Of a stretch of DNA of 26,579 nt, positions 4,214 through 23,098 are shown piece by piece. Position numbers and translations under genes: made by a program. The notes under the pieces were generated by a model that worked only from the letters and a program-made list of their open reading frames with translations, did not search any database and was not told where the DNA came from. Position 1 is the stretch's first letter. Every line of letters begins with the position of its first letter. Origin of the DNA: Elusimicrobiota bacterium (GTDB taxonomy: Bacteria > Elusimicrobiota > Elusimicrobia > Elusimicrobiales > Elusimicrobiaceae); assembly GCA_031258375.1 (NCBI GenBank), contig JAIRMX010000079.1, positions 1 to 26,579 of the forward strand. The letters are read 5' to 3'.

Positions 4214-4426
4214 AAACAAAAACGGCCGTTATATTTGAGCCACGAAAATAACCCAAAATATAACAGCCGTAGTTTCCCGTCCGCAAGGACGGGAAACATT
4301 CAGCACGCGACATCAAGAGGATCAGTCCTGACATCGTGTGCTTGATAACGAGCTGTTTTTAGGTTTTTCGTGTGCTTTTGAAATTCTCAAAAGCTCGTTT
4401 TGCCTTCGCAAAACACCCAAAAACAT
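4214..4426 (-). ncRNA. Structured cis-regulatory leader, copy 1 (upstream of pilin #1)
   Basis: P1 GTTTTTGGG/CCTAAAAAC encloses GTTTTGC-GAAG-GCAAAAC and GCTTTTGA-GAATT-TCAAAAGC. Then CAGCTCGTTATCA, a long variable hairpin, GTTTCCCGTCC-TTGC-GGACGGGAAAC, and a 15-bp terminator stem ACGGCTGTTATATTT/AAATATAACGGCCGT plus T tract. Homologous to copies at 15697-15903 and 22889-23098. Confidence 0.8.
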
Positions 4427-4430
4427 TTCA

Positions 4431-4449
4431 AATTTTTATAAGCCGATTA
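4431..4449 (-). promoter_or_regulatory. Conserved promoter-like motif TAATCGGCTTATAAAAATT just 5' of leader copy 1
   Basis: 19/19 identical to 17984-18002 and 18/19 identical to 14489-14507; lies 5-15 nt upstream of each leader's GTTTTTGG. Confidence 0.55.
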
Positions 4450-4460
4450 TTTTTTCTTTT

Positions 4461-4583
4461 GTCACACTGAACCCCGTATTAAGACTTTACGGGGCAGGGC
4501 CATTTCAGTGTCTCTCTATTCGTCACCCTGAACTTGTTTCAGGGTCTGCCGTACGACAGATTTTGAAACGAGTTCAAAATGAC
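4461..4583. repeat. Cluster of REP/RPE-like palindromic units, one with a nested hairpin
   Basis: GTCACCCTGAACTTGTTTCAGGGTCT (4522-4547) faces AGATTTTGAAACGAGTTCAAAATGAC (4558-4583). A third unit, GTCACACTGAA...ATTTCAGTGTCT (4461-4512), is interrupted by CCCCGTA...TACGGGG. Conceptual translation gives RHPELVSGS/QILKRVQND, typical of such palindromic repeats. Confidence 0.7.
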
Positions 4584-4897
4584 AACTTCCTATTTTTTCG
4601 ACTTACATTAACAACCGTTTTCTCCTTGATTTTGCTTTCTAATTTTATTATACAATAAATTTAACTTCTTTTTACGGCACTGCTAAATAGAATACATAAA
4701 ACAACAAATTTTGAGGTTTAAGATTATGTTTGTATGGCGCAATATTTGAAAACTAAGAAAATTAATGCGTTCTATGTATGCTATTTGGCATTGCCTTTAA
4801 TTTAAAGAAATTGGTTTGTTTTTAGTAATTAGACTTAAGTCTTTCCCATTAATTCATAAGCTATTTTATATAATAAATATAAGGGCATAATTCCTTT

Positions 4898-7800
4898 ATG
4901 CAATTTATATCGGCAGTTCCGAACGTTTCCGCAGCCGCTTTTTATCTTGCTCAAAAACAAAAAAGCGGCGAGATTCTTTTTGTCTGCAAAACCGAAGAAG
5001 AGCTTGAAGAATTCGCCGCAGCCGCCAACACTTTTATACCTGAAAATATTTCCTTAAACGCGGCAATTTTAGGCGAGAATAAATTTTCGGTTTATAGCGG
5101 CTTATATGAAATTACGACTTCAAAAGAAAATATTTTTGCGGCGACAACTTACGAGAACGCAAAAATCCTGCTGCCGGGTAAAAAAGATTTCCTCTCAAAA
5201 ATAATTACAATTAAAATCGCGCAAAATTTGCAGCGCGCCCATTTGCTTGCAAAACTTGAAGACTGCGGATACGAACGAACGGATTTTACGGAGAAACAAG
5301 GCGAATACGCGCTTAGAGGCTCCGTAGTCGATATTTTTAATATAAATTCCGCGCTGCCGTGCAGGATTTATTTCAGCGGCAACACGATTTCGACAATATC
5401 TCTCTTTGATATTGAAACGCAAAATACGAAAACCAATTTGTCGGAAATAAATATAATCCCCTTCAAATTCGCTCAGGAACTTTCTTCCCTTAAACACTGG
5501 ACTAAGAATTTTGATATTTATCTGCAAAATCCTAAGGAAGAGGATTTGAAGAATTTTGAAGGCAGCATAAGCGTATTAACAAATTTTAACGCGGAGAACG
5601 CAATCGACGCGGGCTTGCGCTCAAATACGAATTTCAACGCGGATTTAAAATTGTTCGACGCTGAAGTTTTGCGTTTGCAAAAAGAGAATTTCAAAATAAT
5701 ATTTTACTGTCTCAACAGAGGCGAAGCCGACAGATTGCGGGAAGTTTTTAACGATTACGAAGGCCTCAAAAAATTGCCCGCTATCATTGCTCCGCTGCGG
5801 CGGGGATTTTGCAGTTTCTCGGAAAAATTCGCTTATTTTACTTCCGGCGAAATATTTAACAGGAATTACCGCTCGTCGGCGTTAATTAAAGATTTCAATA
5901 GCGCAGGCGCAAAACGCTTGCGATTTAAAGAGCTTGAGGCGGGGGATTATATTGTCCATCACGAACACGGCATAGGACGATACGGAGGCATGAAAACGCT
6001 TGAGAACGACGGCATTCATATCGATTGCCTTATAATAGAATTTAAACGCGGAGAAAAACTATACGTCCCTGCAAGCGACTTTCGCAAAATACAAAAATAT
6101 ATAGGTTTAAAAGGCAAAGCGCCGAAAATATCCTCTTTAAACGGCAATAGCTGGAAAGAAGTAAAAAAGCGCGTGAAAGAAGACGCTCAAAAAACGGCAA
6201 AAGAAATTTTAAAATTGGAAGCTCTTCGTCAAGCGAATAAAGCGCAAAATCTTTTTGGAGACGAGCGTCTTGAAAGAGAGTTTCAAGATTCTTTCCCATA
6301 CGAACAAACGGACGACCAGACCAAAGCTATAAACGAAATCCTTGCCGACATAATGCAGCAACGCCCTATGGACCGAGTGCTTATAGGCGACGTTGGCTTT
6401 GGCAAAACGGAAGTGGCAATGCGCGCGGCTCTAAAAGCCGTCTTAAGCGGTTCGCAAGTTATTGTTTTGGCGCCGACTACGGTGCTTGCGGCGCAGCATT
6501 ATAAAACGTTTTGCGCGCGAATGGCGGGTTTTCCCGCAAGAATTGCAATGCTCAGCCGCTTTCAAAGTAAAAAAGAACAAAAAATTACAGCGACCGACAT
6601 AAAAAAAGGAATTGTCGATATCGCAATAGGCACGCACAGGCTGCTTTCAAAAGATATAGAATTCAAAAATTTAGGATTATGTGTTATTGACGAAGAGCAT
6701 CGCTTCGGCGTGAAACAAAAAGAAAAAATAAAAGCGAAATCTTTAGGCGTGCATACTCTTATGCTTTCCGCAACGCCTATTCCGCGCACTTTAAATCAAT
6801 CGCTTTCAAGTCTGCGGGATATGTCCGTTATAGAAACGGCTCCGCAAGGCCGTATGCCGATAAAAACGCACGTTTTGCCTTATAACGAAGATATTGTGGC
6901 CGCTGCGGTGCGCGAAGAAATCGCGCGCGGCGGGCAGGCGTTTTACGTTTATAATAAAGTTGAAAATATGCCCTCAAAATTGTCCCGCCTTCAAAACATT
7001 CTGCCGGAAGTTCGCATTTGCATGGCCCACGGACAGCTTGAAGACGCCGCGCTTGAAACCACTCTTTGGGATTTTTATAATAAAAAATACGATATGCTTT
7101 TGGCTTCTACCATAATAGAATCGGGTTTGGATATAACGAACGCAAATACCCTCATTATTGAAAACGCGCAGGACTTTGGCCTTGCGCAATTATATCAATT
7201 GCGCGGACGCATAGGGCGCGGAGATAAAAAAGCCTGTTGCTATCTCTTGCACCCCGAGTGGCTTCTGAAAAAACAGGAAGAGGATTACAGCGTGAATTCT
7301 TTTTTCGGCAAAATTGCGAAAAAACAGAAAAGCTCGACGGAAGAAGCGCAAAAGCGTTTAAACGCGATAATGGAATTCAGCGAGCTTGGAAGCGGTTTTC
7401 GTCTTGCTCTTAGGGATTTGGAAATACGGGGCGGCGGAGAACTTTTAGGCATACGCCAGCACGGGTATGTAAACGAAGTCGGACTTTCGCTGTATTGCGA
7501 TTTAGTTTCAAACGAAGTCAAAAAACTTAAAGGCGAAGTTCCCCCGCGCAAATTTTTGGCTGCGGTCAATCTGCGGGTTGCGGCGTATATCCCGCCTGAT
7601 TATATGCCAAACGACAGCGAGCGTCTTCGTTATTACAAAGAATTTATGGCTACAGACGACAGACAACAGAAAGAAGATCTTTTGCATTCTCTTGAAAATA
7701 TAAGCGGCCCCGCGCCGATAGAGCTGCTCAATCTTGTAGAAATTATTCAGCTTTCTCAAGACGCCGGCAAAGAAAATATACGTCAGGTAGAAGGCGGCGA

Positions 7801-8002
7801 CGGCTTTACGGATTTTTATTTCGCAAAAACTTTTAAAATTCCTCCGGCGGCCGTAAGCGAGCTGATAAATAAATTTACAAATAATATCAAGTTTATTCCC
7901 GCTCCAAACGGCGACGGCATTCGTATTTATCATATTCCAGCCGCCAACGCGATGGAAAATGCAAAAAGGCTGTTTGTAACTTTAAAACGAATATTAAACT
8001 AG
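4898..8002 (+). CDS. mfd: Transcription-repair coupling factor
   Basis: UvrB-homology segment (GEYALRGSVVDIF), CarD/RID (VHHEHGIGRYGG), GDVGFGKT, DEEHRFG, SATPIPRTL, QLYQLRGRIGR, TRG motif RDLEIRGGGELLG, C-terminal TRCF domain. Confidence 0.95.
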   Translation: MQFISAVPNVSAAAFYLAQKQKSGEILFVCKTEEELEEFAAAANTFIPENISLNAAILGENKFSVYSGLYEITTSKENIFAATTYENAKILLPGKKDFLSKIITIKIAQNLQRAHLLAKLEDCGYERTDFTEKQGEYALRGSVVDIFNINSALPCRIYFSGNTISTISLFDIETQNTKTNLSEINIIPFKFAQELSSLKHWTKNFDIYLQNPKEEDLKNFEGSISVLTNFNAENAIDAGLRSNTNFNADLKLFDAEVLRLQKENFKIIFYCLNRGEADRLREVFNDYEGLKKLPAIIAPLRRGFCSFSEKFAYFTSGEIFNRNYRSSALIKDFNSAGAKRLRFKELEAGDYIVHHEHGIGRYGGMKTLENDGIHIDCLIIEFKRGEKLYVPASDFRKIQKYIGLKGKAPKISSLNGNSWKEVKKRVKEDAQKTAKEILKLEALRQANKAQNLFGDERLEREFQDSFPYEQTDDQTKAINEILADIMQQRPMDRVLIGDVGFGKTEVAMRAALKAVLSGSQVIVLAPTTVLAAQHYKTFCARMAGFPARIAMLSRFQSKKEQKITATDIKKGIVDIAIGTHRLLSKDIEFKNLGLCVIDEEHRFGVKQKEKIKAKSLGVHTLMLSATPIPRTLNQSLSSLRDMSVIETAPQGRMPIKTHVLPYNEDIVAAAVREEIARGGQAFYVYNKVENMPSKLSRLQNILPEVRICMAHGQLEDAALETTLWDFYNKKYDMLLASTIIESGLDITNANTLIIENAQDFGLAQLYQLRGRIGRGDKKACCYLLHPEWLLKKQEEDYSVNSFFGKIAKKQKSSTEEAQKRLNAIMEFSELGSGFRLALRDLEIRGGGELLGIRQHGYVNEVGLSLYCDLVSNEVKKLKGEVPPRKFLAAVNLRVAAYIPPDYMPNDSERLRYYKEFMATDDRQQKEDLLHSLENISGPAPIELLNLVEIIQLSQDAGKENIRQVEGGDGFTDFYFAKTFKIPPAAVSELINKFTNNIKFIPAPNGDGIRIYHIPAANAMENAKRLFVTLKRILN

Positions 8003-8333
8003 TAGAAAGATTAATTATATCTCTTTGATATTTTACATGAGCCAAAGGTCTTATTATTTAATATTAGTACATGTCGAACTTTTTAGTTTAAACGAATAGA
8101 TGACTAGCGAATGATATTAGTTCATTATTTCCCTTATATTTTATAGTGAAAAATCATAAAAGATATATACAAAATCTATCTACGCGTCGTTTTTTATTCC
8201 TTATTTTTTTAACAATATTTATATTCGGACGAAAAAACATCGTCCTTGTAATTTTGTTATAATTTCTAAAGACGGCTTGTGTCGGGATAACTTTAAATTC
8301 AAAAAATTATCAACGTATGCGTAAAAGGAGAAA

Positions 8334-9305
8334 TTGGTGGAATTAAGATTATTAATTATTGGAACGACAGCTTTTATTTTTGCAAAAACCGCAAAATATT
8401 TTAAAAAGAAAAATTTATTTCAAAATAAAAATTTTTTTATGGCATTTAATGCTCTTTTCGCGCTTATTGCCGGGGGAATGATCTATTATCTTTTGAATTT
8501 TATGTCCGCAAACGGCATTCAGGGCGGCCTCTCGCCAAGCAAAACGGCTTTGATAATAACCGCTACTGTAGCTTACGCCGTTTACAATATTTACAAAGCC
8601 AAAAATGCCGGCAAAAAACAAACTGAAAAAATTTATGCTTTTAATCTTGATTGGGCGGAAACCGTTTATTTTGCCGGATTTTTCGCTTCGGTGGCGATGT
8701 TTTTTCTTCTTCAGGCTTTTAAAATACCGTCGGCCTCTATGCGCAATACTTTGCTTGAAAAGGATAATTTGTTCGTAAATAAAATAGTTTACGGCATAAG
8801 GCTGCCTTTTATGAACCGCAAACTTATAAAATTCGGCGATATAAAGCGCGGCGACGTTATAGTATTTCGCTTTCCTGCGGAAAACAAAAAACAAATAAAC
8901 TGCGGCGAGCCGCAATACGGCCGCGATTTTGTCAAGCGCGTCGTAGGCCTTCCGGGAGAAACGGTTGAGATGAAAAACAAACAAGTATTTATAAACGGCG
9001 ATTTAATACCGTCGCAGAGTTATGAAGTTTACAGCGATCATCCCGAGCAGAACGTAGACAATTTTTTATCGACGGAACAATATCAGCGAATATGGGAAAA
9101 CAGAGAACTTGAGCAATATTTCGGCCTTGCGCTGCGCGATAATTTCGGGCCTGTAACAATTCCTCAAGGCGCATATCTTGCAATAGGAGATAACAGGGAT
9201 TTTTCCTGCGATTCCCGTTTTTGGGGGCCTGTGCCGGAAAAAAACATCAAAGGCAAAGCGTGGTTTATCCACTGGCCTCTGAGCAGAGTGAGCTTGATAA
9301 AATAA
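8334..9305 (+). CDS. lepB: Signal peptidase I
   Basis: QAFKIPSASM (catalytic Ser), GDVIVF, DFVKRVVGLPGE (catalytic Lys), GDNRDFSCDSRFWG; AGGAG RBS before TTG; extended -10 TGTTATAAT at 8255-8263. Confidence 0.93.
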   Translation: MVELRLLIIGTTAFIFAKTAKYFKKKNLFQNKNFFMAFNALFALIAGGMIYYLLNFMSANGIQGGLSPSKTALIITATVAYAVYNIYKAKNAGKKQTEKIYAFNLDWAETVYFAGFFASVAMFFLLQAFKIPSASMRNTLLEKDNLFVNKIVYGIRLPFMNRKLIKFGDIKRGDVIVFRFPAENKKQINCGEPQYGRDFVKRVVGLPGETVEMKNKQVFINGDLIPSQSYEVYSDHPEQNVDNFLSTEQYQRIWENRELEQYFGLALRDNFGPVTIPQGAYLAIGDNRDFSCDSRFWGPVPEKNIKGKAWFIHWPLSRVSLIK

Positions 9306-9307
9306 AT

Positions 9308-9721
9308 TTAGTAAGGCCAGGCAATAATTTCAATATTTATATTTGCTTTTCTGGCCGCATGAAGTATTTTCTCCCGCGTTTTCTCATCCGGCAAAGAAAA
9401 ACCTTTTATGCGTTTCAAATTCCAATAAACTTTAGCTCCTCTTGGCAACCGTATAAGTTCTTCTATAAAAGCATCCGTTCCGTAACTGACAAGATTGTCT
9501 TTCATAATATATTCACGCGAAGAAATTTTTGTGGCTGATTCAAAAACAGCATATGCCCAAGTATCTTCGTGCGGCCATGAATAAAGTTCGTACGCCGCCG
9601 CCGCAGCAGGCGCGCTTATATCCGTGCTCGGATTAATACTGCTTATTTGAAATCCTGCGCCCGGGCCGCAGCCGGCCGCAAACGAAAAAGTAAGACATAT
9701 ATATAATAATTTAGCTTTCAT
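9308..9721 (-). CDS. Hypothetical lipoprotein
   Basis: Lipobox-like FAAG|C after a hydrophobic stretch; GGAG RBS upstream; no recognisable family. Confidence 0.65.
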   Translation of the reverse strand: MKAKLLYICLTFSFAAGCGPGAGFQISSINPSTDISAPAAAAAYELYSWPHEDTWAYAVFESATKISSREYIMKDNLVSYGTDAFIEELIRLPRGAKVYWNLKRIKGFSLPDEKTREKILHAARKANINIEIIAWPY

Positions 9722-9780
9722 TTCTCCTCCAATTTATAAAAGTCTTAGATAATAATATCATTTTATGTTAAAATTATGTT

Positions 9781-10560
9781 ATGGATAATAAAAAAGATTT
9801 TTCAAATGATATGTTATATTCTCTACAAATAGGGGGTATTGTAGCCGTTGCTCTGTTGCTAATATTTCCCGTTTATTTATATATGCGAAAAGCGACGCGC
9901 ATAGAAAACTCCTTAAGTCCGAAAAAATTGGATTCCTTTAAATCAGACACTGCGCAAATAATAAATCCCAGCCGTCAATTCCTGCCTTCCGCAAACGCCG
10001 GATATGCCGGTATTGACGTAGGCCAGCGCAGTGTAAAATATGCGAACACCGGCTCGGCAATCTTAGGCGTTACCGCACAAACAATCACGCAATTTACACC
10101 TGAGGATTTCAGAAAAATAGGGGAAACGCCGTGGAGCCTTACCAATACCGTCGCCGCCAATCGTAATTTCCCAAGCTTGGTCGAGGTAGTATTTAATAAT
10201 CCCAATGTGGTGGCCGGTTTTTTAGGGAGAACAACAACTCAAGAACTACTTAATTCTCCCGATAAAATCACCTCGATTATTCAAAATAATGATTCAATAA
10301 TAGAACAGTTTTTCTCAAGTCCCGCGGCTGTCGGGACTCTAGGAAATGAAAATATGATGCTTGCAATAGCCAAAAGCACGTTGCTTTCGCAGATATTTAG
10401 CTCAAAAACAGGCCAGTATTTTATTAAAAATCCCCGTCGCGCGCGCGCGCTTGCAGCCGGCAATAAAACGCTTGCGCCCTTGCTTAGCAACGAGAGCGTA
10501 AAGAAATTTTTATTTGCTCATCCGCAGACAAAAGCCGCGGCTGCGGAATTTTATAAATAG
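9781..10560 (+). CDS. Hypothetical single-pass membrane protein
   Basis: 259-aa ORF with one N-terminal hydrophobic helix (IGGIVAVALLLIFPVYLY); fills the space between neighbours; no family recognised. Confidence 0.7.
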   Translation: MDNKKDFSNDMLYSLQIGGIVAVALLLIFPVYLYMRKATRIENSLSPKKLDSFKSDTAQIINPSRQFLPSANAGYAGIDVGQRSVKYANTGSAILGVTAQTITQFTPEDFRKIGETPWSLTNTVAANRNFPSLVEVVFNNPNVVAGFLGRTTTQELLNSPDKITSIIQNNDSIIEQFFSSPAAVGTLGNENMMLAIAKSTLLSQIFSSKTGQYFIKNPRRARALAAGNKTLAPLLSNESVKKFLFAHPQTKAAAAEFYK

Positions 10561-10645
10561 GGATATTTCTCGTAGAATTAGATAAAAACTAAAAACAGCG
10601 TATAAATTTTGTAAACCATAAAATAAACTCAAAAAGGCGGTATTT

Positions 10646-11308
10646 ATGAAAATTGCAAAATATATAGACCATACTCTCTTAAAAGCTTATGCTTCCGATA
10701 AAGAAATAGAAATTCTTTGTAGGGAAGCAATGCAATACGGTTTTGCCTCCGTATGCGTTAATCCGTTTTGGGTGTCTTCTGCGGCTAAAATTTTGAGAGG
10801 CAGCAATGTTAAAGTTTGCACCGTAATCGGTTTTCCGCTTGGCTATAATAAGCGTCATGTAAAAGCTTATGAAACCGCAGTCGCCCTTCAAGACGGAGCT
10901 AGGGAATTTGATATGGTTATGAATATAGGAGCGCTTAAAAGCAGGTTGTTTGACGAGGTGCAAATCGATATCGAAACCGTGCGGCGCGCCGCAAGAGAAA
11001 ATATTTTGAAAGTTATTATAGAAACATTTTACCTGACAGAAGAAGAAAAAGTTAAAGCATGTCAAATCGCCGCAGCCGCAGGTGCGGATTTTGTAAAGAC
11101 ATCGACCGGATTTTCGGGTAAAGGCGCGACGGAAGAGGATGTGAGACTTATGAAACAGGCTTCCGGCGTCAAAGTCAAAGCTGCCGGAGGAATTCAAACT
11201 AAGGAAGATATGTTTAAAATGATAGACGCCGGCGCGGACAGAATAGGCACCAGCTGCGGCGCGCAAATTATTTCTTCTTTAGAAACGCATATCGGCGCTG
11301 GAGTGTAA
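10646..11308 (+). CDS. deoC: Deoxyribose-phosphate aldolase
   Basis: IDHTLLK, VIGFPLG, DMVMN, LKVIIET, FVKTSTGF (Schiff-base Lys), VKAAGGI, RIGTS. Confidence 0.96.
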   Translation: MKIAKYIDHTLLKAYASDKEIEILCREAMQYGFASVCVNPFWVSSAAKILRGSNVKVCTVIGFPLGYNKRHVKAYETAVALQDGAREFDMVMNIGALKSRLFDEVQIDIETVRRAARENILKVIIETFYLTEEEKVKACQIAAAAGADFVKTSTGFSGKGATEEDVRLMKQASGVKVKAAGGIQTKEDMFKMIDAGADRIGTSCGAQIISSLETHIGAGV

Positions 11309-11327
11309 TTTTTATGTTCGCCAAATG

Positions 11328-11360
11328 AAAACGCCGCGAGAATGTTTCTCGCGGCGTTTT
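11328..11360. terminator. Bidirectional intrinsic terminator
   Basis: AAAACGCCGCGAGAA-TGT-TTCTCGCGGCGTTTT perfect stem between convergent deoC and the aminotransferase. Confidence 0.85.
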
Positions 11361-11371
11361 GAACTTAATTG

Positions 11372-12502: not shown

Positions 12503-12503
12503 A

Positions 12504-14182: not shown

Positions 14183-14407
14183 TAATAATCCTCCGCAAAA
14201 TTTTCACATAAAGCAAATATCCGCAGATATATTAATTATATCATTACAATAAAAGTTATTCAGCATTTTTCCGATATCTTATCGAGAAATATCGTTATTA
14301 TTGCTATTTTTATCGCTTTAGAAACACATTGAAGTTTTACTTGTATTGCTATTCTAAAAAATATCTAGTAAAAAAAGAAGTAAGCGGCTGTTAATTTAAA
14401 GAGAGAA

Positions 14408-14474
14408 TGCTTGAATCGGCAATCTATGTTAAAGTCATAGAAATGGATGCCTGATTACAAATTTCAAGTATGAC
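14408..14474. repeat. Degenerate REP/RPE-like palindrome remnant
   Basis: GCTTGAATCGGCAATCT...GATGCCTGATTACAAATTTCAAGTATGAC resembles the 4522-4583 unit; ends in TGACAAAAGA, as does the unit upstream of leader copy 1. Confidence 0.35.
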
Positions 14475-14488
14475 AAAAGAGCAAAAAA

Positions 14489-14581
14489 TAATCGGTTTAT
14501 AAAAATTTGATACTGTTTTTGGTAGTTTCCGCAAGGGAACAAGCTTTTAAGATATCAAAGGCATTCACAATGTTCAAACAG
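14489..14581 (+). ncRNA. Truncated leader, copy 2 (promoter-like motif plus 5' domain only)
   Basis: TAATCGGTTTATAAAAATT, then CTGTTTTTGGTA, GTTTCC-GCAA-GGGAAC, AAGCTTTTAA-GATA-TCAAAGGCA...AAACAG; similarity ends there and no terminator module follows. Confidence 0.7.
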
Positions 14582-14588
14582 CGATAAC

Positions 14589-14807
14589 AATGCACATCAA
14601 ACGACTGGCGACCAGCAGCTGGCAGCCGCTGAGGAACTGATGATACTCACCCGTATGGATACTTTATTTGATAAAACTGCTGAGATGATGATTAACATGC
14701 AATTCCAGCAAAATCCCGGCCTTGCCCCATCTTTTACCGAAAATATATGCGCTATGAAAGACGGTGCACAAGCTACGCTACCACATTGTATGGATACCGA
14801 AGTATAG
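14589..14807 (+). pseudogene. Gene fragment, possibly DUF2059-like
   Basis: Open frame NAHQTTGDQQLAAAEELMILTRMDTLFDKTAEMMINMQFQQNPGLAP... with no RBS or plausible start; its 3' end runs into the IS remnant. Family call is from memory of AAEEL...QQNP-type helices and is weak. Confidence 0.35.
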
Positions 14808-15005
14808 GAAGATAGGGGAGGAGTTTTTGGAACTTGAAGAGTTTTTGTGGGGAGATAGTTTTTGGGCAGAGGGGTATTTTGCGGAGAGCGTAGGCGTAGC
14901 GGAAGAAGAGATGATAAGGCGGTATATCAGGGACAATGAATGTATGAATTATGCCGAGCAGTTGACCTTCTTAGAAACCACACCCTTTAGGGCGTGTGTT
15001 GCTCA
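14758..15005 (+). mobile_element. tnpA: IS200/IS605-family tnpA remnant with internal deletion and right-end hairpin
   Basis: VHKLRYHIVWIPKYRK joined directly to EFLELEEFLWGDSFWAEGYFAESVG...IRRYI; the HUH (HxH) segment is missing. Subterminal hairpin CACACCC-TTTA-GGGCGTG at 14979-14996. Confidence 0.8.
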
Positions 15006-15068
15006 TTGCTAAATGCTTTTAAATACTTATATTTGACTGTAAATTCCCCCGCCCCTTTGACCAATTTA

Positions 15069-15653
15069 TTAATTAAACATAAACCTTAACCCAGAGCTTG
15101 GACTTATTGAATATAAATCATAATCAACGCCACTCATATTAACATAATGAATTCCCAAATCAAGTTTTATATCCTCTGATAATGCTGGGGCTATGCCTGC
15201 ATAAAAAGAATATGTAAAATTATTTTCGCTATCCGAATATCCCAAAAAAGAAGCTTTAACTTTAGTTCTCCCTATGCCTGCTCCAAGAACAAATTCTGTA
15301 TCTGAATTTGAGAATTTTTTATTAAATAGGATAGTAAAAATAAAAGAATCTCCTGTCGCTGTTATCCCTTCAGACACTGGCAGTCCTAATTCGTTTCTAA
15401 TAAAACTTGCATCAACTATTGTAACTTGCGTGTGTCTTAAATATTCTCCCTCTATTCTCAAATTTTCAGCCAAAGATATCCCAAGTGATGTTCCTAAAAT
15501 AGGGGCTATATCATCATTCTTATAGCCTGATTCTTTATAATTTATAAAGCCTAATCCAGCTTTAAACGATATATAGGGTTTTACTGATGCTTCTTGAGCA
15601 AACAGTGGAATTACCAAAACCACAGCAACAAACATTATTATCATTTTCTTCAT
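15069..15653 (-). CDS. Outer-membrane beta-barrel protein (OmpA/opacity-like 8-strand type)
   Basis: Signal peptide MKKMIIMFVAVVLVIPLFA; alternating beta strands (YISFKAGLG, LRIEGEY, FVLGAGIG, FYAGI, LDLGIHY); C-terminal GLRFMF. The ORF-track start at 15788 lies inside the leader RNA and is rejected. Confidence 0.8.
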   Translation of the reverse strand: MKKMIIMFVAVVLVIPLFAQEASVKPYISFKAGLGFINYKESGYKNDDIAPILGTSLGISLAENLRIEGEYLRHTQVTIVDASFIRNELGLPVSEGITATGDSFIFTILFNKKFSNSDTEFVLGAGIGRTKVKASFLGYSDSENNFTYSFYAGIAPALSEDIKLDLGIHYVNMSGVDYDLYSISPSSGLRFMFN

Positions 15654-15696
15654 TTTTATGCCCTCTCTGTTATTAATATTTCTTTTGTTGTATACC

Positions 15697-15903
15697 AAAC
15701 AAAAACGGCTGTCATATTTGAGCCATAGGAAATAACCCAAGATATAACAGCCGTAGTTTCCCGCCCGAAGGCGGGAAACATTCAACACAAAGCAAAAGGC
15801 TCATGACTTCCTCTCGCTTTGTGTTTGATAACGGTCTGTTTCTGGATTTCCTATGTGCTTTTGATTTCTCAAAAGCTCATCCCTTTCGGGATTCCAAAAA
15901 CGT
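15697..15903 (-). ncRNA. Structured cis-regulatory leader, copy 3 (upstream of the beta-barrel gene)
   Basis: GTTTTTGGA/TCCAGAAAC, ATCCC-GAAA-GGGAT, GCTTTTGA-GAAA-TCAAAAGC, CAGACCGTTATCA, variable hairpin AACACAAAGC/GCTTTGTGTT, GTTTCCCGCC-TTCG-GGCGGGAAAC, terminator ACGGCTGTTATAT/ATATGACAGCCGT plus TTTT. Extended -10 TGCTATAAT at 15946-15954. Confidence 0.8.
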
Positions 15904-16185
15904 CTTTTAAAACTATTTTTAACAGTTACTTTTTAGTACAAATTTATTATAGCATATTTAGACACTTTACTAACATGAACACAATGAGCAAAATAAAATA
16001 CCTATATATACAATGCCAAATACCCAAGGTATGATCATTTCAATATGAGAAAATGGATAATAGATATCTCTATTTTCTCCTTTACCCAAAATGTTCCATT
16101 CATAATCATAAACAGAAATAGGCCATCTTTATTCTATATAGTGTATAACTTAAATTTTCCAGTATTTAATTGTTTATAAGATCGC

Positions 16186-16225
16186 AATAAACAAGGACGA
16201 GTTTTAACTCGTCCTTGTTATTTTT
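16186..16225. terminator. Intrinsic terminator following the displaced dnaK 3' copy
   Basis: AACAAGGACGAG-TTTTAA-CTCGTCCTTGTT 12-bp stem flanked by A/T runs. Confidence 0.75.
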
Positions 16226-16300
16226 AATTCTTATTTCCCGTCGACAACTTCGGCTTCCACAACGTCGTCTTTTTTAAGCTCTTCGGCCTGCCGGCCGTCT
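16222..16300 (-). pseudogene. Duplicated, diverged 3' end of dnaK (att-like direct repeat)
   Basis: 16222-16275 matches 19013-19066 at 53/54 nt; the next 25 nt match at 16/25. Encodes ...[17 protein letters not shown] versus DnaK ...[17 protein letters not shown]. Confidence 0.9.
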
Positions 16301-16779
16301 GCATCAGTCGCGCCGGCATTTGTTCCTGCTCCGCCGTACCCAGAGTCTGCGGCTGGGAAATTCCGGCGGACGAACCATAAATATTGTTGCCCGTCTAAAA
16401 TAGTCATGTGATGCATTCATAACAATTGTATATGGGAAGATTGAATAAAGGCCGGCAAGCAGCGGACAAAAAAAGTTCTGCTTCTTTTCATCAAATTTTA
16501 TTTATATTAGAAATACATTAATAAAAAATCTTAAAATTTGCAATGACATTGCATATTTTAAGATTTAAACCTGTTTAAAATTCTTCTTTTTATTTTTTAC
16601 CTATGAATTTGTTTAGCAATTTTTATTGAATATTTCTTTGAATACCCGCAGCTTTTTGCGCAGGTCAACCGGAGCGGGGTTTAGACCGTATATTGAATAA
16701 AAAAATATAAACGAAAACTAGAGTGGAAAATAGTATTTTTTCGGCATTGCCAAGAAAAATTCCAAATCCTGAACGGATT

Positions 16780-17757
16780 TTAAAAATTTTGTTTTGAAAG
16801 AACCGTGCTTTCGCAAGCCAGTTTAAATTCTTCTATATTAAATATATTTACGCTGTCAGGTTCTGGCCCCGCTTTGACAACTATTGCGTTTGGATTGTTC
16901 GGAGACCAAAATGTATCCCAAGGTTTATTATAAAAAGCAATTGTCGGCTTTTTAAAGGCCGACGCTATATGCACGGCTGAAGTATCGGGACTAATCAGTA
17001 GTTTGGCACTATAGATTAAGGAAATTAAATCAAACGGATTTTCAGTTTTGAAGAAATAAACGTTTGCAAAATTGTCGTGTAAATTCTTGATTTTGCCCAT
17101 TTGTTTCCTGCTCATATACGGAATAACAATTTGCGGCTTGTCAAATAACTGATTTAGCGTGCTGGCGATTAATTGTAATGTCTCTGCGTTAAAAGTTCTT
17201 CCTTGCGCGTGCGCGAACGGGTTTAACGCGATATATTCCTTTATTCCGTTGGCCGTTAAAAATTCTCGGTTTTTATCTTGGGATTTTTCCGTTAAATGAA
17301 CGTCATAATTATTATCAAAATCTTTTACTCCTAAAGTTTCTAATATTCCTATAACGCTATCTTTTGCATGATTGCCGGAAGAAATCCATTTAATCTCTCT
17401 AACTTTGTCTCGCGAAGCTATTTTTGAAAATAATTTCCAGTTTGGATAATTCTTCTTATACGATGTATCTATAGCCAAATCAAATTTATCTTTTCTAATT
17501 TTCAGTCCGTAATAAATTAGCGTTGGCCAACGGCTGTGCTTATGCAGTCTTCTCATCGGCATAACGTATAATCGGTTTATATATTTATTTTCTTTAAGAA
17601 ATGCTCCTGACGCGCCAAATGTCGCTACGCTTATATTTATCGCGGGATTTGCTTTCTTTAGTTCTCTATATAAAATTGAGTAAATTATTTCGTCACCAAG
17701 GCCTCCATCCGACCTAAAAATTAAAATACTGTTGATATTCTTAATGTTTATAGCCAT
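16780..17757 (-). CDS. Glycosyltransferase family 9 (heptosyltransferase-like, LPS core)
   Basis: ILIFRSDGGLGDEI, KFDLAID, YIALNPFA, LISLIYSAKLLISPDTSAVHIASAFKKPTIAFY. Confidence 0.88.
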   Translation of the reverse strand: MAINIKNINSILIFRSDGGLGDEIIYSILYRELKKANPAINISVATFGASGAFLKENKYINRLYVMPMRRLHKHSRWPTLIYYGLKIRKDKFDLAIDTSYKKNYPNWKLFSKIASRDKVREIKWISSGNHAKDSVIGILETLGVKDFDNNYDVHLTEKSQDKNREFLTANGIKEYIALNPFAHAQGRTFNAETLQLIASTLNQLFDKPQIVIPYMSRKQMGKIKNLHDNFANVYFFKTENPFDLISLIYSAKLLISPDTSAVHIASAFKKPTIAFYNKPWDTFWSPNNPNAIVVKAGPEPDSVNIFNIEEFKLACESTVLSKQNF

Positions 17758-17798
17758 ATTTTTCTCTTTTAGTCCCTTTAAATTGCAATTTATATGGC

Positions 17799-17970
17799 AA
17801 TAAAAAGGCGATAATCACTTCTTGAGGGTTCCTAAACGCCCAAAAAAATGAAAATCGCCAACCAGAACCCCTGCGGGTTCTGGTAATATGGCGACTTCAT
17901 CTTTGGCTTAGGAACCAATTTGCTTGTTAAGCAAATTCGTGCTGTTTCTATAAAACAGCTTCCAAAAACA
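17799..17970 (-). ncRNA. Variant structured leader, copy 4 (upstream of GT9)
   Basis: GTTTTTGG/CCAAAGAT encloses GCTGTTTT-ATAG-AAACAGC-AC and AATTTGCTT-AAC-AAGCAAATT. Then ACCAGAACCC-GCAG-GGGTTCTGGT and GGCGATTTTCAT/GTGATTATCGCC plus TTTTT, with a large loop containing TTTGGG. Preceded by the same 19-nt motif as copy 1. Confidence 0.6.
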
Positions 17971-17983
17971 AAGCCTTTCAAAC

Positions 17984-18002
17984 AATTTTTATAAGCCGAT
18001 TA
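17984..18002 (-). promoter_or_regulatory. Conserved promoter-like motif TAATCGGCTTATAAAAATT
   Basis: Identical to 4431-4449. Confidence 0.55.
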
Positions 18003-18096
18003 ACAGCTTATTTGCGACAATTTTTCTCCCGTATTTACTGACAATTTATTTTAGCAAAATTATTGATATTTTGCTTTGCTTCGTTTCAAATCGGTA

Positions 18097-18807
18097 TTAC
18101 AAACAAATATCCACAAAATTTTTACCAAATGCCGTTAAGTTTATATCACCTCTTTTCCAAGTATAGCTTTCATTATGTATTAATTTTTTAATACAAAATT
18201 TTGCAAGAATTTCATCCAAAATATTTTTCTGATCTCCAAGTCTAACATATAGGTTTTCAACAGCGATTATCTTCAATCTCTCCAGGTTGTCAATTATCAC
18301 GTCATCCAATTTATCATAATTATTTTTTATTAGCATTACTCGAATTTTACGAGACATTTTTTGATTTATTTCAAATATATCTACAGGAAATTTTACATTT
18401 TTAAGGAACTCGGCATCATCTTTGCTTAGTTGTTTTACAATCTCTATATAAGCGGGCAGAACTTTTGATTTTTTTGTTTTATCAATATCAGCAGTTAATA
18501 TATTTATAAACATATTTTTAATATGTTTTTGCTGTTCATCCAAGTTCCATTTTAACGCTTCAAACGTAGTCCCCCAAATATTAGTTGAAGCGTGAACGAG
18601 ATTTTGCGGTGGAATAGCCTTGATTTTTTCTTCCAACTCTTTTTTTAAATTATCAATTTGTTCTTTTGTTATGAAAGTATTTTGTAAAGCAGAAATTAAC
18701 TGTATTACTTGTCCGGCACTCCAACCAAAATTTTGAGTTAAATTACCACTCACTTGATTGACAAGATTATTCTGACCGGAAGTTTCAACAATTTGTTTAT
18801 CTAACAC
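18097..18807 (-). CDS. Abi-alpha/DUF4393-like protein
   Basis: FEALKWNLDEQQKHIKNMFINILTADIDKTK...PAYIEIVKQLSKDDAEFL and C-terminal NLERLKII...LTAFGKNFVDIC resemble DUF4393/Abi-alpha; visibly AT-rich; GTG start. Confidence 0.65.
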   Translation of the reverse strand: MLDKQIVETSGQNNLVNQVSGNLTQNFGWSAGQVIQLISALQNTFITKEQIDNLKKELEEKIKAIPPQNLVHASTNIWGTTFEALKWNLDEQQKHIKNMFINILTADIDKTKKSKVLPAYIEIVKQLSKDDAEFLKNVKFPVDIFEINQKMSRKIRVMLIKNNYDKLDDVIIDNLERLKIIAVENLYVRLGDQKNILDEILAKFCIKKLIHNESYTWKRGDINLTAFGKNFVDICL

Positions 18808-18977
18808 TTATATTACCGCCAGCTTGATTTACGACATTATTTTTACCTGATAATTTAGCCGTCTGCTTTTTATTGCAAATGTAAAATGTTGCGCCAGAAC
18901 CCAAAATAGTCCCTATTAGTGTACAAAGTATATTAACTATTATTTCGCTCATATTTATAGTATTCTGAGTTCTCAAT

Positions 18978-19010
18978 AAAAGGGCGGGAGTTTTTAGCTC
19001 CCGCCCTTTT
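18978..19010. terminator. Intrinsic terminator of the hrcA-grpE-dnaK operon
   Basis: AAAAGGGCGGGAG...CTCCCGCCCTTTT 13-bp stem 11 nt after the dnaK stop. Confidence 0.85.
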
Positions 19011-19021
19011 AATTTTAATTC

Positions 19022-20896
19022 TTATTTCCCGTCGACGACTTCGGCTTCCACAACGTCGTCTTTTTTGGATTCTTCGCCTTGCGGCGCGTCTTGTTGAGTA
19101 TTTGCGGCGTCGGCGTTTGCGCCCGAAGCTTTCTGCTGCGCCGCTTGCGCTTCCTTGTAAATAATCTCGCCGAGTTTCTGGCTCGCCGTTAAAGCGGCTT
19201 CGGTCGCTTTTTTAATGCGTTCGGTATCTTCGGATTTAATGGCGTCTTTCAAATCGTTTAAAGCCTGATCGATTTTTAAACGCTCGTCCTGCGATACTTT
19301 ATCGCCGTGTTCCTTTAACGCTTTTTCCGTTTGATATAAAACGCTGTCGGCCTGATTTTTGGCTTCAATTCGCTCTTTAGTCTTTTTATCTTCGTCCGCG
19401 TACTGCTCGGCCTGTTTGACGAAATTATTGACTTCGTCTTCGCTGAGTTTATTGGGAGCGGTTATGGTTATATGCTGTATTTTATTAGTCCCCAAATCTT
19501 TGGCGGAAACCTTTAAAATACCGTTGGCGTCAATATCAAAAGTGACTTCAATTTGCGGAACGCCGCGCGGAGCCGGAGGGATACCGTCCAAGTCAAACTT
19601 ACCGAGCGGAACATTGTCTTTTGCCATAGGTCTTTCGCCCTGTAAAACATTAACGGTAACCGCAGGTTGATTGTCGGCGGCCGTGCTGAATACTTGCGTT
19701 TTGCGTACGGGGATTGTGGTGTTGCGGTCAATAAGTTTTGTCATTACGCCGCCCAAAGTTTCAAGGCCGAGAGAGAGCGGAGTTACGTCAAGCAGCAAAA
19801 TATCTTTTACGTCGCCGGTTAAAACTCCCGCCTGAATTGCCGCGCCGTTTGCCACGCATTCCATAGGGTCAATGCCGCGCTCTATTTTTTTGCCCACGTG
19901 TTTTTCAACATATTCCTGCACTATGGGCATACGAGTAGGCCCGCCGACCATAATGATTTTGTCAATGTTGCTCATTGAAAGTTTACTGTCTGCAACGGCT
20001 CTGTCAATTGAAGCGCCGCAGCGATCCACTATCGGCCTGACAAGGCTTTCAAGTTTCGCGCGCGAAAGTTTAAGTTCCAAATGTTTGGGGCCGCTTGCGT
20101 CCGCAGTTAAGAAAGGCAGATTGATATCCGTTTCCATAGTGGTGGAAAGTTCTATTTTTGCTTTTTCCGCCGCGTCTTTAAGGCGCATCATTGCCTGTTT
20201 GTCTTTTGAAACGTCTATGCCGGTGGATTTTTTGAATTCGTCCACTAAATAATTTATAACCGCGTTATCCATATCCGTGCCGCCTAGCTTCGTGTCTCCG
20301 GAAGTCGATATAACGTCAAAAGTGCCTTCTTTGCCCATTTCCATAATGGTGACGTCCAGCGTGCCGCCGCCAAGGTCAAATACAAGAATTTTTTGTTCCT
20401 TACCGGTCTTGTCAATACCGTAAGCAAGCGCGGCGGCGGTAGGTTCGTTTAAAAGCCTGACTACTTCAAGCCCCGCAATTTTGCCCGCGTCTTTTGTCGC
20501 TTGTCTTTGATTATCGTTAAAATAAGCGGGAACTGTGATTACGGCTTTCTCAATCGTCTGTCCTAAAAAAGATTCGGCGTCTTTCTTTACTTTTTGCAAT
20601 ACGAAAGCAGAAAGCTGTTGAGGCGTAAATTCATTGCCGCGCAGATTGAATTTATAATTTTCCCCCATTCTTCTTTTAAACGCTGTTGCCGTACCTTCAG
20701 GATTGGCTACGGCCTGCCTTCTTGCAGGTTCGCCGACAAGACGCTGTCCGTCTTTAGTAAAAGCCACATAAGACGGAAACGCTTTTCCGCCTATGGAGCT
20801 GCCTTCCGCGGAAGGGATTATCGTCGCTTTGCCGCCTTCCATAACGGCAGCGGCAGTATTTGATGTTCCTAAGTCTATACCTATAATTTTAGCCAT
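19022..20896 (-). CDS. dnaK: Chaperone DnaK (Hsp70)
   Basis: [53 protein letters not shown], acidic tail; AGGAG RBS. Confidence 0.99.
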
Positions 20897-20931
20897 ATAT
20901 TTTCTCCTTTTAAATAAATTGTTCGTTTTTA

Positions 20932-21510
20932 TTATTTTTGCTCTTTCTGATCTTTTTGTTCTTGATTTTCCTCTTCTTTTTTCTTACCTACTATTACCTG
21001 CGCATAGCGCAGCACTTGCCCTCCAAAAGTTACGCAGCGGCAAAGCTCATCCGCCACTTTACCGTCGTCTTTATCCTCGCACGGTACTGTCGTAATAACT
21101 TCTTGAGTCATAGGGTCGTACGGTTTGCCTTTACTGCAGACAACTTCAACCCCTTCAGATTTGAAGACTTTATTAAATTCTTCAAAAATCATATTAAGAC
21201 CTTGTTTTATATGTTCCGTATCGGAGTCCTTTTTGTTTACTTCCGCCTCCGCTTTTAACATAGTGTCGTAAAGCGGCAAAAGTTTTTTTATAACTTCCGC
21301 TTTGCCAAATTGGATAAACATAGGCTTTTCCTTTTCGGCGCGTTTACGATAATTCTCAAAATCGGCCTGAAGCCTTAAAAGCTGATCGTAATAATCAGGC
21401 GATTTCGATTGCTCTTCGCGCTGCTCCGCATTTGCAGAAACTTTATCCGCCTGCGCGTCCTGCGCGGCAACGGGTTTTATTTCTTCTTTATTTTCTTTTT
21501 TCTTCGTCAT
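20932..21510 (-). CDS. grpE: Nucleotide exchange factor GrpE
   Basis: [41 protein letters not shown]; start reassigned from 21576 to ATG 21510 (23-nt overlap with hrcA). Confidence 0.93.
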
Positions 21511-22603
21511 TTTCTTTAACTTTGCCCAGAGAATTTTTCCAGTTTTGAATAGTAGTTCCAAGCATTTCCCCCACAAAATTTACTATGGACATCATTCTAT
21601 TATATTCCATGTGTTTGGGGCCTACTATGCCAAGTATGCCCACAGTTTTATCGCCGACTTTATATACGGAAGTAACGACGCTCAAGTCCCTAAGTTCGGC
21701 AATTTCGTTTTCAGCTCCGATGCTTACCGCGATGTTTCTGCCGCCGATACCGCTTTGCATTTCCCGCATTTTCTCGCTGAGAAACCCTGCCAATTTTTCG
21801 CGGTCTTCCAATACGCTGAGCATACGTCCTATATCGCCGTCGTCGTTGGAAATATTTTCCAAAAGATGGCTCATGCCTTCAATATAAAGGCGGTCGTCGC
21901 TTGTCTGTTGCGAGGACATATCTTTCAAAATTTGCAACGCCAACTCTGAAAAACCGTCGACGTCAGTCTGAGCGCCGCGCAAATTTTCCCATAATACGCG
22001 TTGCGCTTCGCGCAGAGTAAGGCCGGAAATCTGCTCGTTTATATAGCTGCCAAGCAGCATAAGCCGCGTTGGCGAAACCAAGTAATTTACGCGCACCGGC
22101 CAATGTTTGATTATTCCGTCTTCGGTAATTAAAACCGCAAGCACGTTATAAGGACCAAGCGGTATAAAATCAAGCCGCTGCACTACGGTATCCTGCACGT
22201 TGTTTGCCAGCACAAAACCCGCAGAGCCGGAAAGCATAGAAAGCGTCCTAGAAGTTTGTACCATAACGCGGTTGATTTCGTCGGTGTTTTGCCTGTATTC
22301 CTTTTCTATTCTTTCTCTTTCTTTGGCGGCAATTTTTTGAATTTTCGAAAGATAATCCACGTAAAATCTATAAGCTTTATCCGTAGGTATCCTTCCGCCG
22401 GAAGCATGCGGCTGATATAAATAACCTTCGTCCTCCAGCTTCTTCATAGTATTGCGTATAGTCGCGCTGGAAACGCCCGGCAATCCTTTTTGGGCAACCA
22501 GTTCGGAGCCCACGGGTTTGCGCGTTTCAACAAATTCCTGTATAACCATTCTAAGGATTTTTTCTTCGCGTTCTTTTACAATTTCAGGTTTTAATATTCT
22601 CAT
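21488..22603 (-). CDS. hrcA: Heat-inducible transcription repressor HrcA
   Basis: REEKILRMVIQEFVETRKPVGS, SSATIRNTMKKLEDEGYLYQPHASGGRIPTDKAYRFYVD, GILGIVGPKHMEY; start probably ATG 22603. Confidence 0.95.
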   Translation of the reverse strand: MRILKPEIVKEREEKILRMVIQEFVETRKPVGSELVAQKGLPGVSSATIRNTMKKLEDEGYLYQPHASGGRIPTDKAYRFYVDYLSKIQKIAAKERERIEKEYRQNTDEINRVMVQTSRTLSMLSGSAGFVLANNVQDTVVQRLDFIPLGPYNVLAVLITEDGIIKHWPVRVNYLVSPTRLMLLGSYINEQISGLTLREAQRVLWENLRGAQTDVDGFSELALQILKDMSSQQTSDDRLYIEGMSHLLENISNDDGDIGRMLSVLEDREKLAGFLSEKMREMQSGIGGRNIAVSIGAENEIAELRDLSVVTSVYKVGDKTVGILGIVGPKHMEYNRMMSIVNFVGEMLGTTIQNWKNSLGKVKENDEEKRK

Positions 22604-22643
22604 TTTTGCCGCCGTATAAAACAATTTGTCTGGCAACTCTATT

Positions 22644-22670
22644 TTAGCACTCGCAAAATATATTTGCTAA
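22644..22670. promoter_or_regulatory. CIRCE-like operator 1
   Basis: TTAGCACTC-N9-ATTTGCTAA (consensus TTAGCACTC-N9-GAGTGCTAA); lies over the predicted transcription start. Confidence 0.8.
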
Positions 22671-22671
22671 T

Positions 22672-22700
22672 ATTGTAACAAAAGATTTTAAAGTTGTCAA
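22672..22700 (-). promoter_or_regulatory. Sigma70-type promoter of the hrcA operon
   Basis: Minus strand TTGACA (22700-22695), 17-nt spacer, TACAAT (22677-22672). Confidence 0.85.
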
Positions 22701-22720
22701 TCCCCCATTTAGAGTGCTAA
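22694..22720. promoter_or_regulatory. CIRCE-like operator 2 overlapping the -35 box
   Basis: TTGTCAATC-N9-GAGTGCTAA; perfect right arm, left arm 6/9 and coincident with the -35. Confidence 0.7.
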
Positions 22721-22888
22721 AAATAAGCAAGATTTTCCCAAGCGAAAAAATTTAATATACATTTATATTTGATGTTTCCTTGATTTATCAAGTTATATTT
22801 TGCTACTATATGAAGTAGATTCGTACAATTTTACGGAAGGAGTATTTAAGAAAATAATATAAGCTTAAAGGTTTATTACAATTTGATT

Positions 22889-23098
22889 CTGTTTTTGGTA
22901 GTTCTGCGCGAGCGGGACAAGCTTTTGAGATATCAAAAGCACTGCTAAAACCAAAGACAGCTCGTTATCAGGCGTGGGATTTTGAGAATTGCAAGCTTAA
23001 AATCTTACGCCGAGCGTTTACTGCCTTCGGGCGGTAAACCACGGCTGTTATGTTTTGGGTTACTGCAAGAAGCTCAAATATAACGGCCGTTTTTATTT
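22889..23098 (+). ncRNA. Structured cis-regulatory leader, copy 5 (upstream of pilin #2)
   Basis: CTGTTTTTGGT/ACCAAAGACAG, GTTCTGC-GCGA-GCGGGAC, GCTTTTGA-GATA-TCAAAAGC, CAGCTCGTTATCA, GGCGTGGGATTTTGAG/CTTAAAATCTTACGCC, GTTTACTGCC-TTCG-GGCGGTAAAC, terminator ACGGCTGTTATGTTT/AAATATAACGGCCGT plus TTTT. Confidence 0.8.

Follow-up and report, generated by a model that had tools for sequence, protein, structure and literature searches.

The closest described systems to the element treated here are the riboswitch and attenuator platforms of the T-box, PyrR and LicT type, in which a sense-oriented 5′ leader takes one of two mutually exclusive folds and a hairpin with a U tract stands before the ribosome-binding site. 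In the cobalamin riboswitch, the loop of the expression-platform hairpin pairs with an element of the upstream folded domain (the L5-L13 kissing loop), and the sequence of this contact varies between representatives. Loop-loop contacts also decide whether the leader terminator forms in the rep leaders of plasmids pT181 and pIP501, where the partner is a countertranscript, and the RfaH/ops, LoaP and UpxY systems serve pilus, lipopolysaccharide and capsule operons. To our knowledge, almost nothing is known of gene regulation in the phylum Elusimicrobiota. Here we describe a leader RNA of about 210 nt that is found, in complete, variant or truncated form, at five places in a 26,579-nt stretch of a termite-gut Elusimicrobiaceae genome (contig C24; this whole stretch is called the window below). 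It appears to be an undescribed family of structured leader RNA; its standing as such a family is strongly supported, and its function is what we infer from the layout. Type IV pilin-like genes are the most frequent kind of gene behind it, and a riboswitch-controlled type IV pilin gene has a precedent in Clostridioides difficile, where two reports place a cyclic di-guanosine monophosphate (c-di-GMP)-II riboswitch in front of pilA1 (PMC6200980, PMC6366702).

The assembly comprises 1.49 Mb in 237 contigs and is 84% complete; the closest Elusimicrobiota metagenome-assembled genomes from guts (termite, human and rumen) among the matches listed have DnaK proteins 86-92% identical, and the best match to the DNA itself is from a termite gut metagenome. 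Copies of the leader were gathered from the genome by iterated nhmmer, which gave 62 on the sense strand, 52 of them full length, and a covariance model (CM) was then built from these copies. Since many copies sit at contig ends, the count of 62 is a lower bound. The per-genome copy numbers, which range from 1 to about 60, are lower bounds as well, the number of candidates scored being capped. On the sense strand of the window the CM recovered each of the five related elements proposed in a first-pass annotation of this DNA. Three of them are complete from the first helix (P1) to the T tract and are referred to as copy 1 (4216-4425, minus strand, 202 bits), copy 3 (15699-15902, minus strand, 199 bits) and copy 5 (22890-23096, plus strand, 193 bits); a divergent variant and a truncated copy are described at the end. 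The annotation had failed to match the element to known riboswitches by eye, and indeed no model of Rfam 15, which includes c-di-GMP-I and -II, ydaO, T-box, SAM, ykkC and 4,200 others, matched the window at its gathering score. Six copies searched with their flanks at E ≤ 5 gave five chance-level matches to unrelated families (19-21 bits, E 1-4.6, where the gathering scores are 33-70). Even at this threshold there was no similarity to GEMM-I or GEMM-II, and the leader differs from the c-di-GMP riboswitches in architecture and size. No description of the motif was found in a full-text literature search.

The order of parts first read by eye was reproduced by RNAalifold on the 52 full-length copies. 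P1 (8 bp) encloses P2 and P3 (the latter 8 bp) and is followed by a linker, P4 (16 bp), P5 (10 bp) and a terminator-like stem of 13 bp with a 26-nt loop, after which comes the T tract; the same order of blocks was seen in a three-way alignment of window copies 1, 3 and 5. In copy 1, on the minus strand throughout, the 5′ domain spans 4355-4424, with the P1 strands at 4417-4424 and 4355-4363 and the near-invariant P3 hairpin at 4374-4394. The invariant linker AGCUCGUUAUCA (4343-4354), the 16-bp covarying stem of P4 (4302-4342) and the tetraloop hairpin P5 (4272-4297) then lead to the terminator-like hairpin at 4218-4270, whose stem pairs 4258-4270 with 4222-4234, whose 26-nt loop contains UUUGGGUUA, and whose U tract lies at 4218-4222. 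The loops are of the kind originally noticed, with GNRA loops on P2 in three of four copies (GAAA, GCGA and GCAA; copy 1 has GAAG) and UUCG on P5 in two of three. P2 is variable in length and takes insertions of up to 50 nt, just as the variable stems of riboswitch aptamers tolerate large insertions. In about nine copies (e.g. L026, L030, L031, L035, L042 and L043) P2 insertions of 20-50 nt form an extended hairpin.

The suggestion that these stems differ in sequence and keep their pairing is borne out by the trimmed alignment of the 52 genomic copies, in which standard pairs fill 94.9% of cells at paired positions, compared with 41-49% when the partners are slid by 1-3 columns. Double changes occur in 39 of 67 pairs, and none of 500 shuffles reached any of the observed measures. 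P4 contributes strongly, with double changes in 14 of its 16 pairs, and P5 has them in 6 of 10 and is 100% paired; P1, P3 and the final stem vary almost solely by U-A to U-G changes. The argument that many G-U pairs would work on the sense strand only also holds, as paired positions contain 320 G-U and 51 A-C cells, and the folding energy of copy 1 is -97.4 kcal/mol (z -10.7) for the sense strand and -76.8 for the antisense strand. Taken together, the G-U excess and the better sense-strand folding indicate that the structure belongs to the sense-strand RNA.

Placement in sense orientation directly upstream of genes, first remarked on in the window, extends to the whole genome. The nearest long reading frame was scored for full-length copies followed by 600 nt or more of sequence; it lay in sense in 37, in antisense in 0 and was ambiguous in 6, and the upstream neighbours run in the same direction in 17 cases and divergently in 14. 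The 37:0 orientation removes a miniature inverted-repeat transposable element or a repetitive extragenic palindrome as a candidate, which the annotation had said random orientation or position would indicate. A selfish DNA repeat of this general sort, or a DNA palindrome serving recombination or protein binding, is a very improbable account of the family: it would suit the high copy number, the many copies at contig ends, the truncated copy that adjoins an IS200-like fragment and the presence of other repeat families in the genome, but not the strict orientation and position relative to genes, the 320:51 ratio of G-U to A-C cells, the 20 kcal/mol by which the sense strand folds better, the compensatory changes in non-palindromic long-range pairs set out below, or the conservation across the family with orthologous placement.

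Start codons were located 17-49 nt past the modelled leader in 24 cases, which leaves little room for a separate promoter, so that the genes would depend on read-through. Copy 1 is followed after 17 nt by the start codon of a type IV pilin-like gene (3699-4187, minus strand; Pfam N_methyl, 1.1e-10), copy 3 after 35 nt by that of an outer-membrane beta-barrel gene (15069-15653, minus strand; Pfam OMP_b-brl, 3.4e-12), and copy 5 by a second type IV pilin-like gene (23127-23660, plus strand; Pfam N_methyl, 2.2e-10). The first 35 codons of the two window pilins differ by 14 synonymous and 5 non-synonymous codon changes, and the 14 synonymous differences mean, as the annotation had argued, that their leaders are not recent copies. 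The leader is selected rather than recently copied, and it is conserved across the family and into a second family.

A further helix joins distant parts of the leader. In 45 of the 52 copies, 9-12 contiguous pairs can form between the terminator loop, in its 3′ part, and the junction that follows P3, and this long-range helix, which largely takes up the terminator loop, has a different sequence in almost every copy. In copy 1 its strands lie at 4365-4372 and 4241-4248 (minus strand; RNAduplex -13.5 kcal/mol), and in copy 3 at 15846-15855 and 15724-15733 (minus strand; -15.2 kcal/mol). Cognate junction-loop pairs average -13.1 kcal/mol, compared with -4.8 for non-cognate ones (Mann-Whitney p=1e-26); double changes affect each of its nine pairs, and every position has Watson-Crick pairs of several types. 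The best hits from 24 other species, 28 in all, have the helix without exception, and by eye it can be seen in the second family too. Exact genome-wide matches to the copy-specific 9-12-mers consisted of their own two strands and scattered chance hits without any cluster, and so no trans-acting partner locus was found.

Each leader was also folded only to the base before the terminator 3′ arm, as a model of the nascent RNA. The minimum-energy structure of this nascent form is an interrupted helix of about 22 bp from which P1 is absent in 42 of 52 copies, and for 27 of 29 sequences taken from the second family and from other genera the nascent minimum is again this alternative fold, with 20-26 pairs. 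The alternative helix, inside which P4 and P5 lie, takes up the 3′ strand of P1 as well as the 5′ arm of the terminator; the minimum-energy fold of the full-length leader consists of P1 and the terminator. In silico folding in this way supports the switch-type layout proposed at first, with a conserved and mutually exclusive fold that sequesters the terminator 5′ arm. Sequence hardly varies in P1, P3, the linker and the terminator arms, and the other helices covary freely; the near-invariance of P1, the linker and the terminator arms would be explained if their strands have two partners each, a property shared with the dual-partner strands of riboswitch and attenuator platforms. In terms of the model, the 5′ strand of P1 would have its mimic in the terminator loop, and part of the terminator's partner would have one in the linker.

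Seven copies are without junction-loop complementarity (window copy 5 and G000 C84:7798, C76:1983, C210:2544, C20:173, C107:1536 and C74:122), and 6 of the 7 retain P1 in the nascent fold. Copy 5 (row L029) is one of these, with a junction-loop duplex of only -5.1 kcal/mol. It may be that such leaders are locked off or under a different control. C84, the closest relative of copy 5, has an identical loop sequence, and both keep P1 in the nascent fold. At least four of the seven still precede intact-looking pilin genes.

The reading we favour, at a probability of roughly 0.6, is that of a two-state leader acting in cis, which would set how much transcription reads through and, in this genus, how accessible the message is to ribosomes. 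Each element would then be a portable expression cassette made of a promoter, the ~210-nt leader and, in this genus, a matched ribosome-binding context. In the first fold (off), P1 would close the P1-P2-P3 junction, and the 3′ hairpin with its U tract would stop RNA polymerase; the linker, left free and single-stranded, could at the same time cover the Shine-Dalgarno sequence. In the second fold (on), three adjoining stretches would find partners in the terminator's loop and 5′ arm: the copy-specific junction after P3 in the loop segment complementary to it, the CCAAAA on the 3′ side of P1 in UUUUGG, likewise in the loop, and the linker start ACAGCU in GGCUGU of the terminator arm. The resulting interrupted helix of ~22 bp would enclose P4 and P5, open P1 and prevent the terminator, with the linker engaged. 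Termination at the T tract, and a cellular signal that biases the choice of fold, are what we infer from this model. Unlike the riboswitch and attenuator platforms, the leader has a ~22-bp antiterminator in three parts, the largest of them copy-specific, as well as a 26-nt terminator loop, up to ~60 copies in a 1.5-Mb genome and no Rfam match. With the cobalamin riboswitch it shares a variable loop contact between the expression-platform hairpin and an upstream domain, but here the contact comprises 9-12 bp with a junction strand and is extendable into P1 and the terminator arm, and there is no B12-type core.

The proposed link to translation comes from the linker part CUCGUUAU, which is complementary to the Shine-Dalgarno context AUAACGAG (4197-4204 in copy 1), and the 5′ part of the linker can pair with the terminator 5′ arm. 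The AUAACGAG context precedes most leader-served genes, including those that do not encode pilins, and 20 of the 24 genomic sites with ATAACGAGG plus ATG are downstream of a leader. A variant of the context, UAGCGAGG, still pairs with the linker via G-U.

Several points weigh against the two-state leader and need to be set beside it. Although a 13-bp stem with an ACGGC/GCCGU base and then U5 or more, that is, a G+C-rich stem plus U tract as in a terminator, is present in 50 of 52 copies, the loop of ~26 nt lies outside the usual 3-8 nt, and a consensus terminator scan does not report the leader hairpins, which a simple scan of this kind misses because the loop exceeds 8 nt. The complementarity between linker and Shine-Dalgarno sequence is absent in the second family and in a leader subclass whose genes lie at a 165-nt offset, which makes it a lineage-specific addition. 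The CCAAAA/UUUUGG and ACAGCU/GGCUGU segments are almost invariant, leaving the covariation test without power, so that these extra antiterminator pairings cannot be proven by covariation; covariation proves the long helix in its copy-specific part alone, and this part could equally be a pseudoknot formed alongside P1 and the terminator. A conserved pocket for a ligand could not be named. The only RNA runs with this DNA are shallow poly-A termite metatranscriptome contigs that give neither ends nor strand. Finally, the ~22-bp alternative helix is so stable that it may always win, with constitutive read-through as the outcome.

Such stability would also suit a constitutive 5′ untranslated region (UTR), an mRNA stabiliser, insulator or processing site that has spread as a strong promoter-UTR cassette and senses nothing, for which we see a small chance. 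Like a portable cassette, the leader precedes unrelated genes in different species, and neither a ligand pocket nor a partner protein has been identified. Yet seven conserved helices, dual-partner strands, a terminator and a matched anti-Shine-Dalgarno sequence would be needless for a stabiliser and are nevertheless kept across two distant families, and the persistence of helix-lacking copies with intact genes suggests that the two states differ in outcome.

If the leader does switch between two states, candidates for its signal would be a protein that binds the invariant P3/P1 domain, a small ligand in the conserved junction where the long helix meets P4 and P5, or an RNA-RNA contact via the self-complementary P4 loop. 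The junction after P3 is hypervariable and therefore unable to form a specific pocket, which makes it more likely that the P1-P3 domain serves as a platform for a protein or for structure; the junction of the long helix, P4 and P5 in the second fold, with its conserved GUUAUCA, GAGYG or GAAUG, and CYA, would be the better candidate for a ligand site. The genome has two GGDEF-domain genes, so that c-di-GMP is probably made and is a possible effector, and no DAC domain was found in this 84%-complete genome. By reading, no conserved small open reading frame is apparent in the leader, the one ATG of the consensus arising where the P4-P5 junction takes its GAAUG form. A special case of the two-state leader would be a recruiting leader for a dedicated protein antiterminator of the RfaH/ops, LoaP or UpxY-like kind. 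The served genes (pilins, glycosyltransferases of families 9, 8 and 2, and outer-membrane proteins) resemble the regulons of NusG paralogues as generally known, and a protein could plausibly bind the invariant P3 hairpin; we nonetheless hold this version to be improbable, as a single NusG-family gene (PF02357 match) was found in the genome, itself 84% complete, and the known systems act on long operons whereas most leader units are single short genes.

P4, which is not among the switching strands, has a feature of its own. Its apical loop of ~9 nt carries, at a constant place, a self-complementary core of UAAUUA, UCAUGA, UUAUAA, UUGCAA, GAUC or AGCU, copy 1 belonging to the GAUC class. In 100 leaders from the two families there are 29 distinct P4 loops; a palindrome of at least 4 nt is present in 29 of 29, compared with 15.1 in shuffled loops, and a 6-nt palindrome in 17, compared with 4.0. 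Leaders of this genome, of other genera and of the distant family share these loop classes. A 6-nt palindrome is unable to fold on itself, and so intermolecular loop-loop pairing within a class is the simplest reading. The dimerisation-initiation-site loop of HIV-1 is ~9 nt long with a 6-nt self-complementary core, and the P4 loops are alike in size and in having self-complementary cores. Unlike pT181 and pIP501, the leader has no antisense gene, any contact would be made between leaders of the same loop class, and P4 stands outside the switching strands. There is a rather slim chance that same-class leaders form kissing dimers and that terminated leaders act on nascent ones of their class, so that dozens of paralogous pilins and surface proteins would come under dosage control class by class or be expressed in a mutually exclusive way.

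Self-complementary P4 loops, which suggest RNA-RNA assembly, bear on a different account as well, in which the element is a stand-alone multicopy small RNA gene. Its product would be the compact ~210-nt RNA with a pseudoknot, possibly dimerising through P4, and expression of the downstream gene would be leak-through or incidental. The leader has its own promoter-like box and terminator, its full-length minimum-energy fold is the terminated form, and a related leader appears as a 151-nt contig at depth 28, the deepest from one RNA run, which shows its presence in RNA libraries only. We consider this account unlikely though with a real chance of being right: a small RNA gene would not call for the strict 37:0 sense orientation, for start codons 17-49 nt past the leader in genes that need read-through, for a ribosome-binding context that matches the linker, or for a conserved alternative fold that disables the terminator.

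Beyond this genome, the CM finds matches in all 24 species of the same genus and in 128 of 141 sampled genomes of the family, covering 7 of its 10 genera; among them is a complete genome of 2.2 Mb in which at least 4 copies were counted. Two other families of the order gave 0 matches in 16 genomes. The second, distant family belongs to the same phylum but lies outside this class, and 11 of its 44 genomes matched, two of them with 27-28 copies each. No match was found in 26 further families, and one more family had a single borderline match (E about 0.01). Should the two-state leader prove true, it would amount to a class of structured regulatory RNA not described before, to which the ~190 sampled genomes give hundreds of matches, and it would govern most type IV pilin-like genes, and other envelope genes, of gut Elusimicrobiota. 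The ~60 leaders make up roughly 1% of the 1.5-Mb genome and would rank among the largest single-genome sets of one cis-regulatory RNA. The design would be unusual in that a hypervariable, copy-specific helix nucleates the antiterminator, alongside invariant strands with two partners, a linker-matched ribosome-binding site and self-complementary loop classes. The natural variants would form a ready-made mutational series for co-transcriptional strand exchange, and relatives within the family are cultured (a complete Elusimicrobium posterum genome exists), which makes the predictions testable.

As for the genes served, 33 of 46 downstream proteins in this genome carry the prepilin N-terminal methylation motif (Pfam N_methyl) and are type IV pilin-like; the others include two family 2 glycosyltransferases, the outer-membrane beta-barrel protein, TM2 and RDD proteins, and further membrane or signal-peptide proteins. 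The original view that the leaders stand before cell-surface genes stood for this genome, where the genes are mainly for pilins and envelope proteins, and did not carry over to the second family, whose genes are not confined to the surface and include an acyltransferase. In other species the leader precedes pilins, lipoproteins, family 8 and 9 glycosyltransferases, a nuclease-like protein and others. In the second family, the genes behind L179, L189 and L194 (G171, G198 and G192) include ones that look defence-related (DUF262-like, DNA-methylase-like), as judged from the N-terminal sequence alone, and the theme shared by the served genes may be accessory or variable genes, beyond surface genes. 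A zinc-ribbon protein with the N-terminus MALIKC.ECGKE...CPNCGYS has the leader in at least three genomes from two genera (L069/G001, L070/G015 and L172/G052), and its gene may be the ancestral orthologous leader site in genomes with few copies.

Conservation across the 52 copies begins at a box of the GGCTTATAAAAATTTGA type just upstream of P1 (4431-4449, minus strand, in copy 1) and runs to the T tract. This box probably gives the leader a promoter of its own, as its -10 region and start-site context, and the transcript would start a few nucleotides before GUUUUUGG. One leader subclass has a TTGTTA-like hexamer 18 nt upstream of the box; a consensus promoter scan gave no good -35/-10 pair at the conserved box. 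A sigma-54 promoter in P4 (GGCAC) was considered and rejected by eye, as the spacing is wrong for one and the segment shows the covariation of a helix. Further upstream, a conserved module precedes one subclass of leaders, copy 1 (4450-4532, minus strand) and ~15 others, consisting of a hairpin CCCCGTAA...TACGGGG and then TTCAGGGTGACA(A/G)AAGA. Another leader subclass has a covarying 6-bp hairpin (TAAGCC-loop-GGCTTA, with variants) in the spacer before the -10-like box.

An independent repeat family of ~140 nt, with hairpins CCCTCGCCGC-TAAA-GCGGCAC and CTCCCTTT-ACAA-AAGGGAG, is found at some 60 loci of the genome. None of the three intact window leaders was seen to be followed by it. About 17 copies lie directly after a leader T tract and before a pilin gene (e.g. 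G000 C196:16085-16249), and this position between leader and gene gives rise to the 165-nt-offset subclass mentioned above. Most other copies of the repeat are away from leaders, and a few are just upstream of one.

The two remaining elements of the window are incomplete in different ways. The variant leader (17802-17970, minus strand; CM 35 bits, E 4.7e-10) belongs to a divergent subtype in which P4 is deleted, with two further copies in the genome. It retains P1, P2, a P5-like hairpin and the final hairpin, has a P3 of different sequence and, from a reading of the CM alignment, keeps the junction-loop complementarity as GGUUCCUAA with UUAGGAACC. Downstream of it lies a glycosyltransferase family 9 gene (16780-17757, minus strand; Pfam Glyco_transf_9, 3.4e-08). 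The truncated leader (plus strand) gave a CM match at 14514-14669 (22 bits); the element itself, at 14502-14582 (nhmmer, 41.6 bits), retains only the promoter box, the P1 5′ strand, P2 and P3. A fragment of an IS200-like Y1 transposase nearby (14764-15012, plus strand; 82 aa, Pfam Y1_Tnp, 3.6e-13) suggests that the leader was cut by insertion or rearrangement. The fragment begins ~180 nt past the truncated leader and matches just the C-terminal end of the Pfam model. Between the variant leader with its glycosyltransferase gene and dnaK, a protein with an Abi_alpha (abortive infection) domain is encoded at 18097-18807 on the minus strand.

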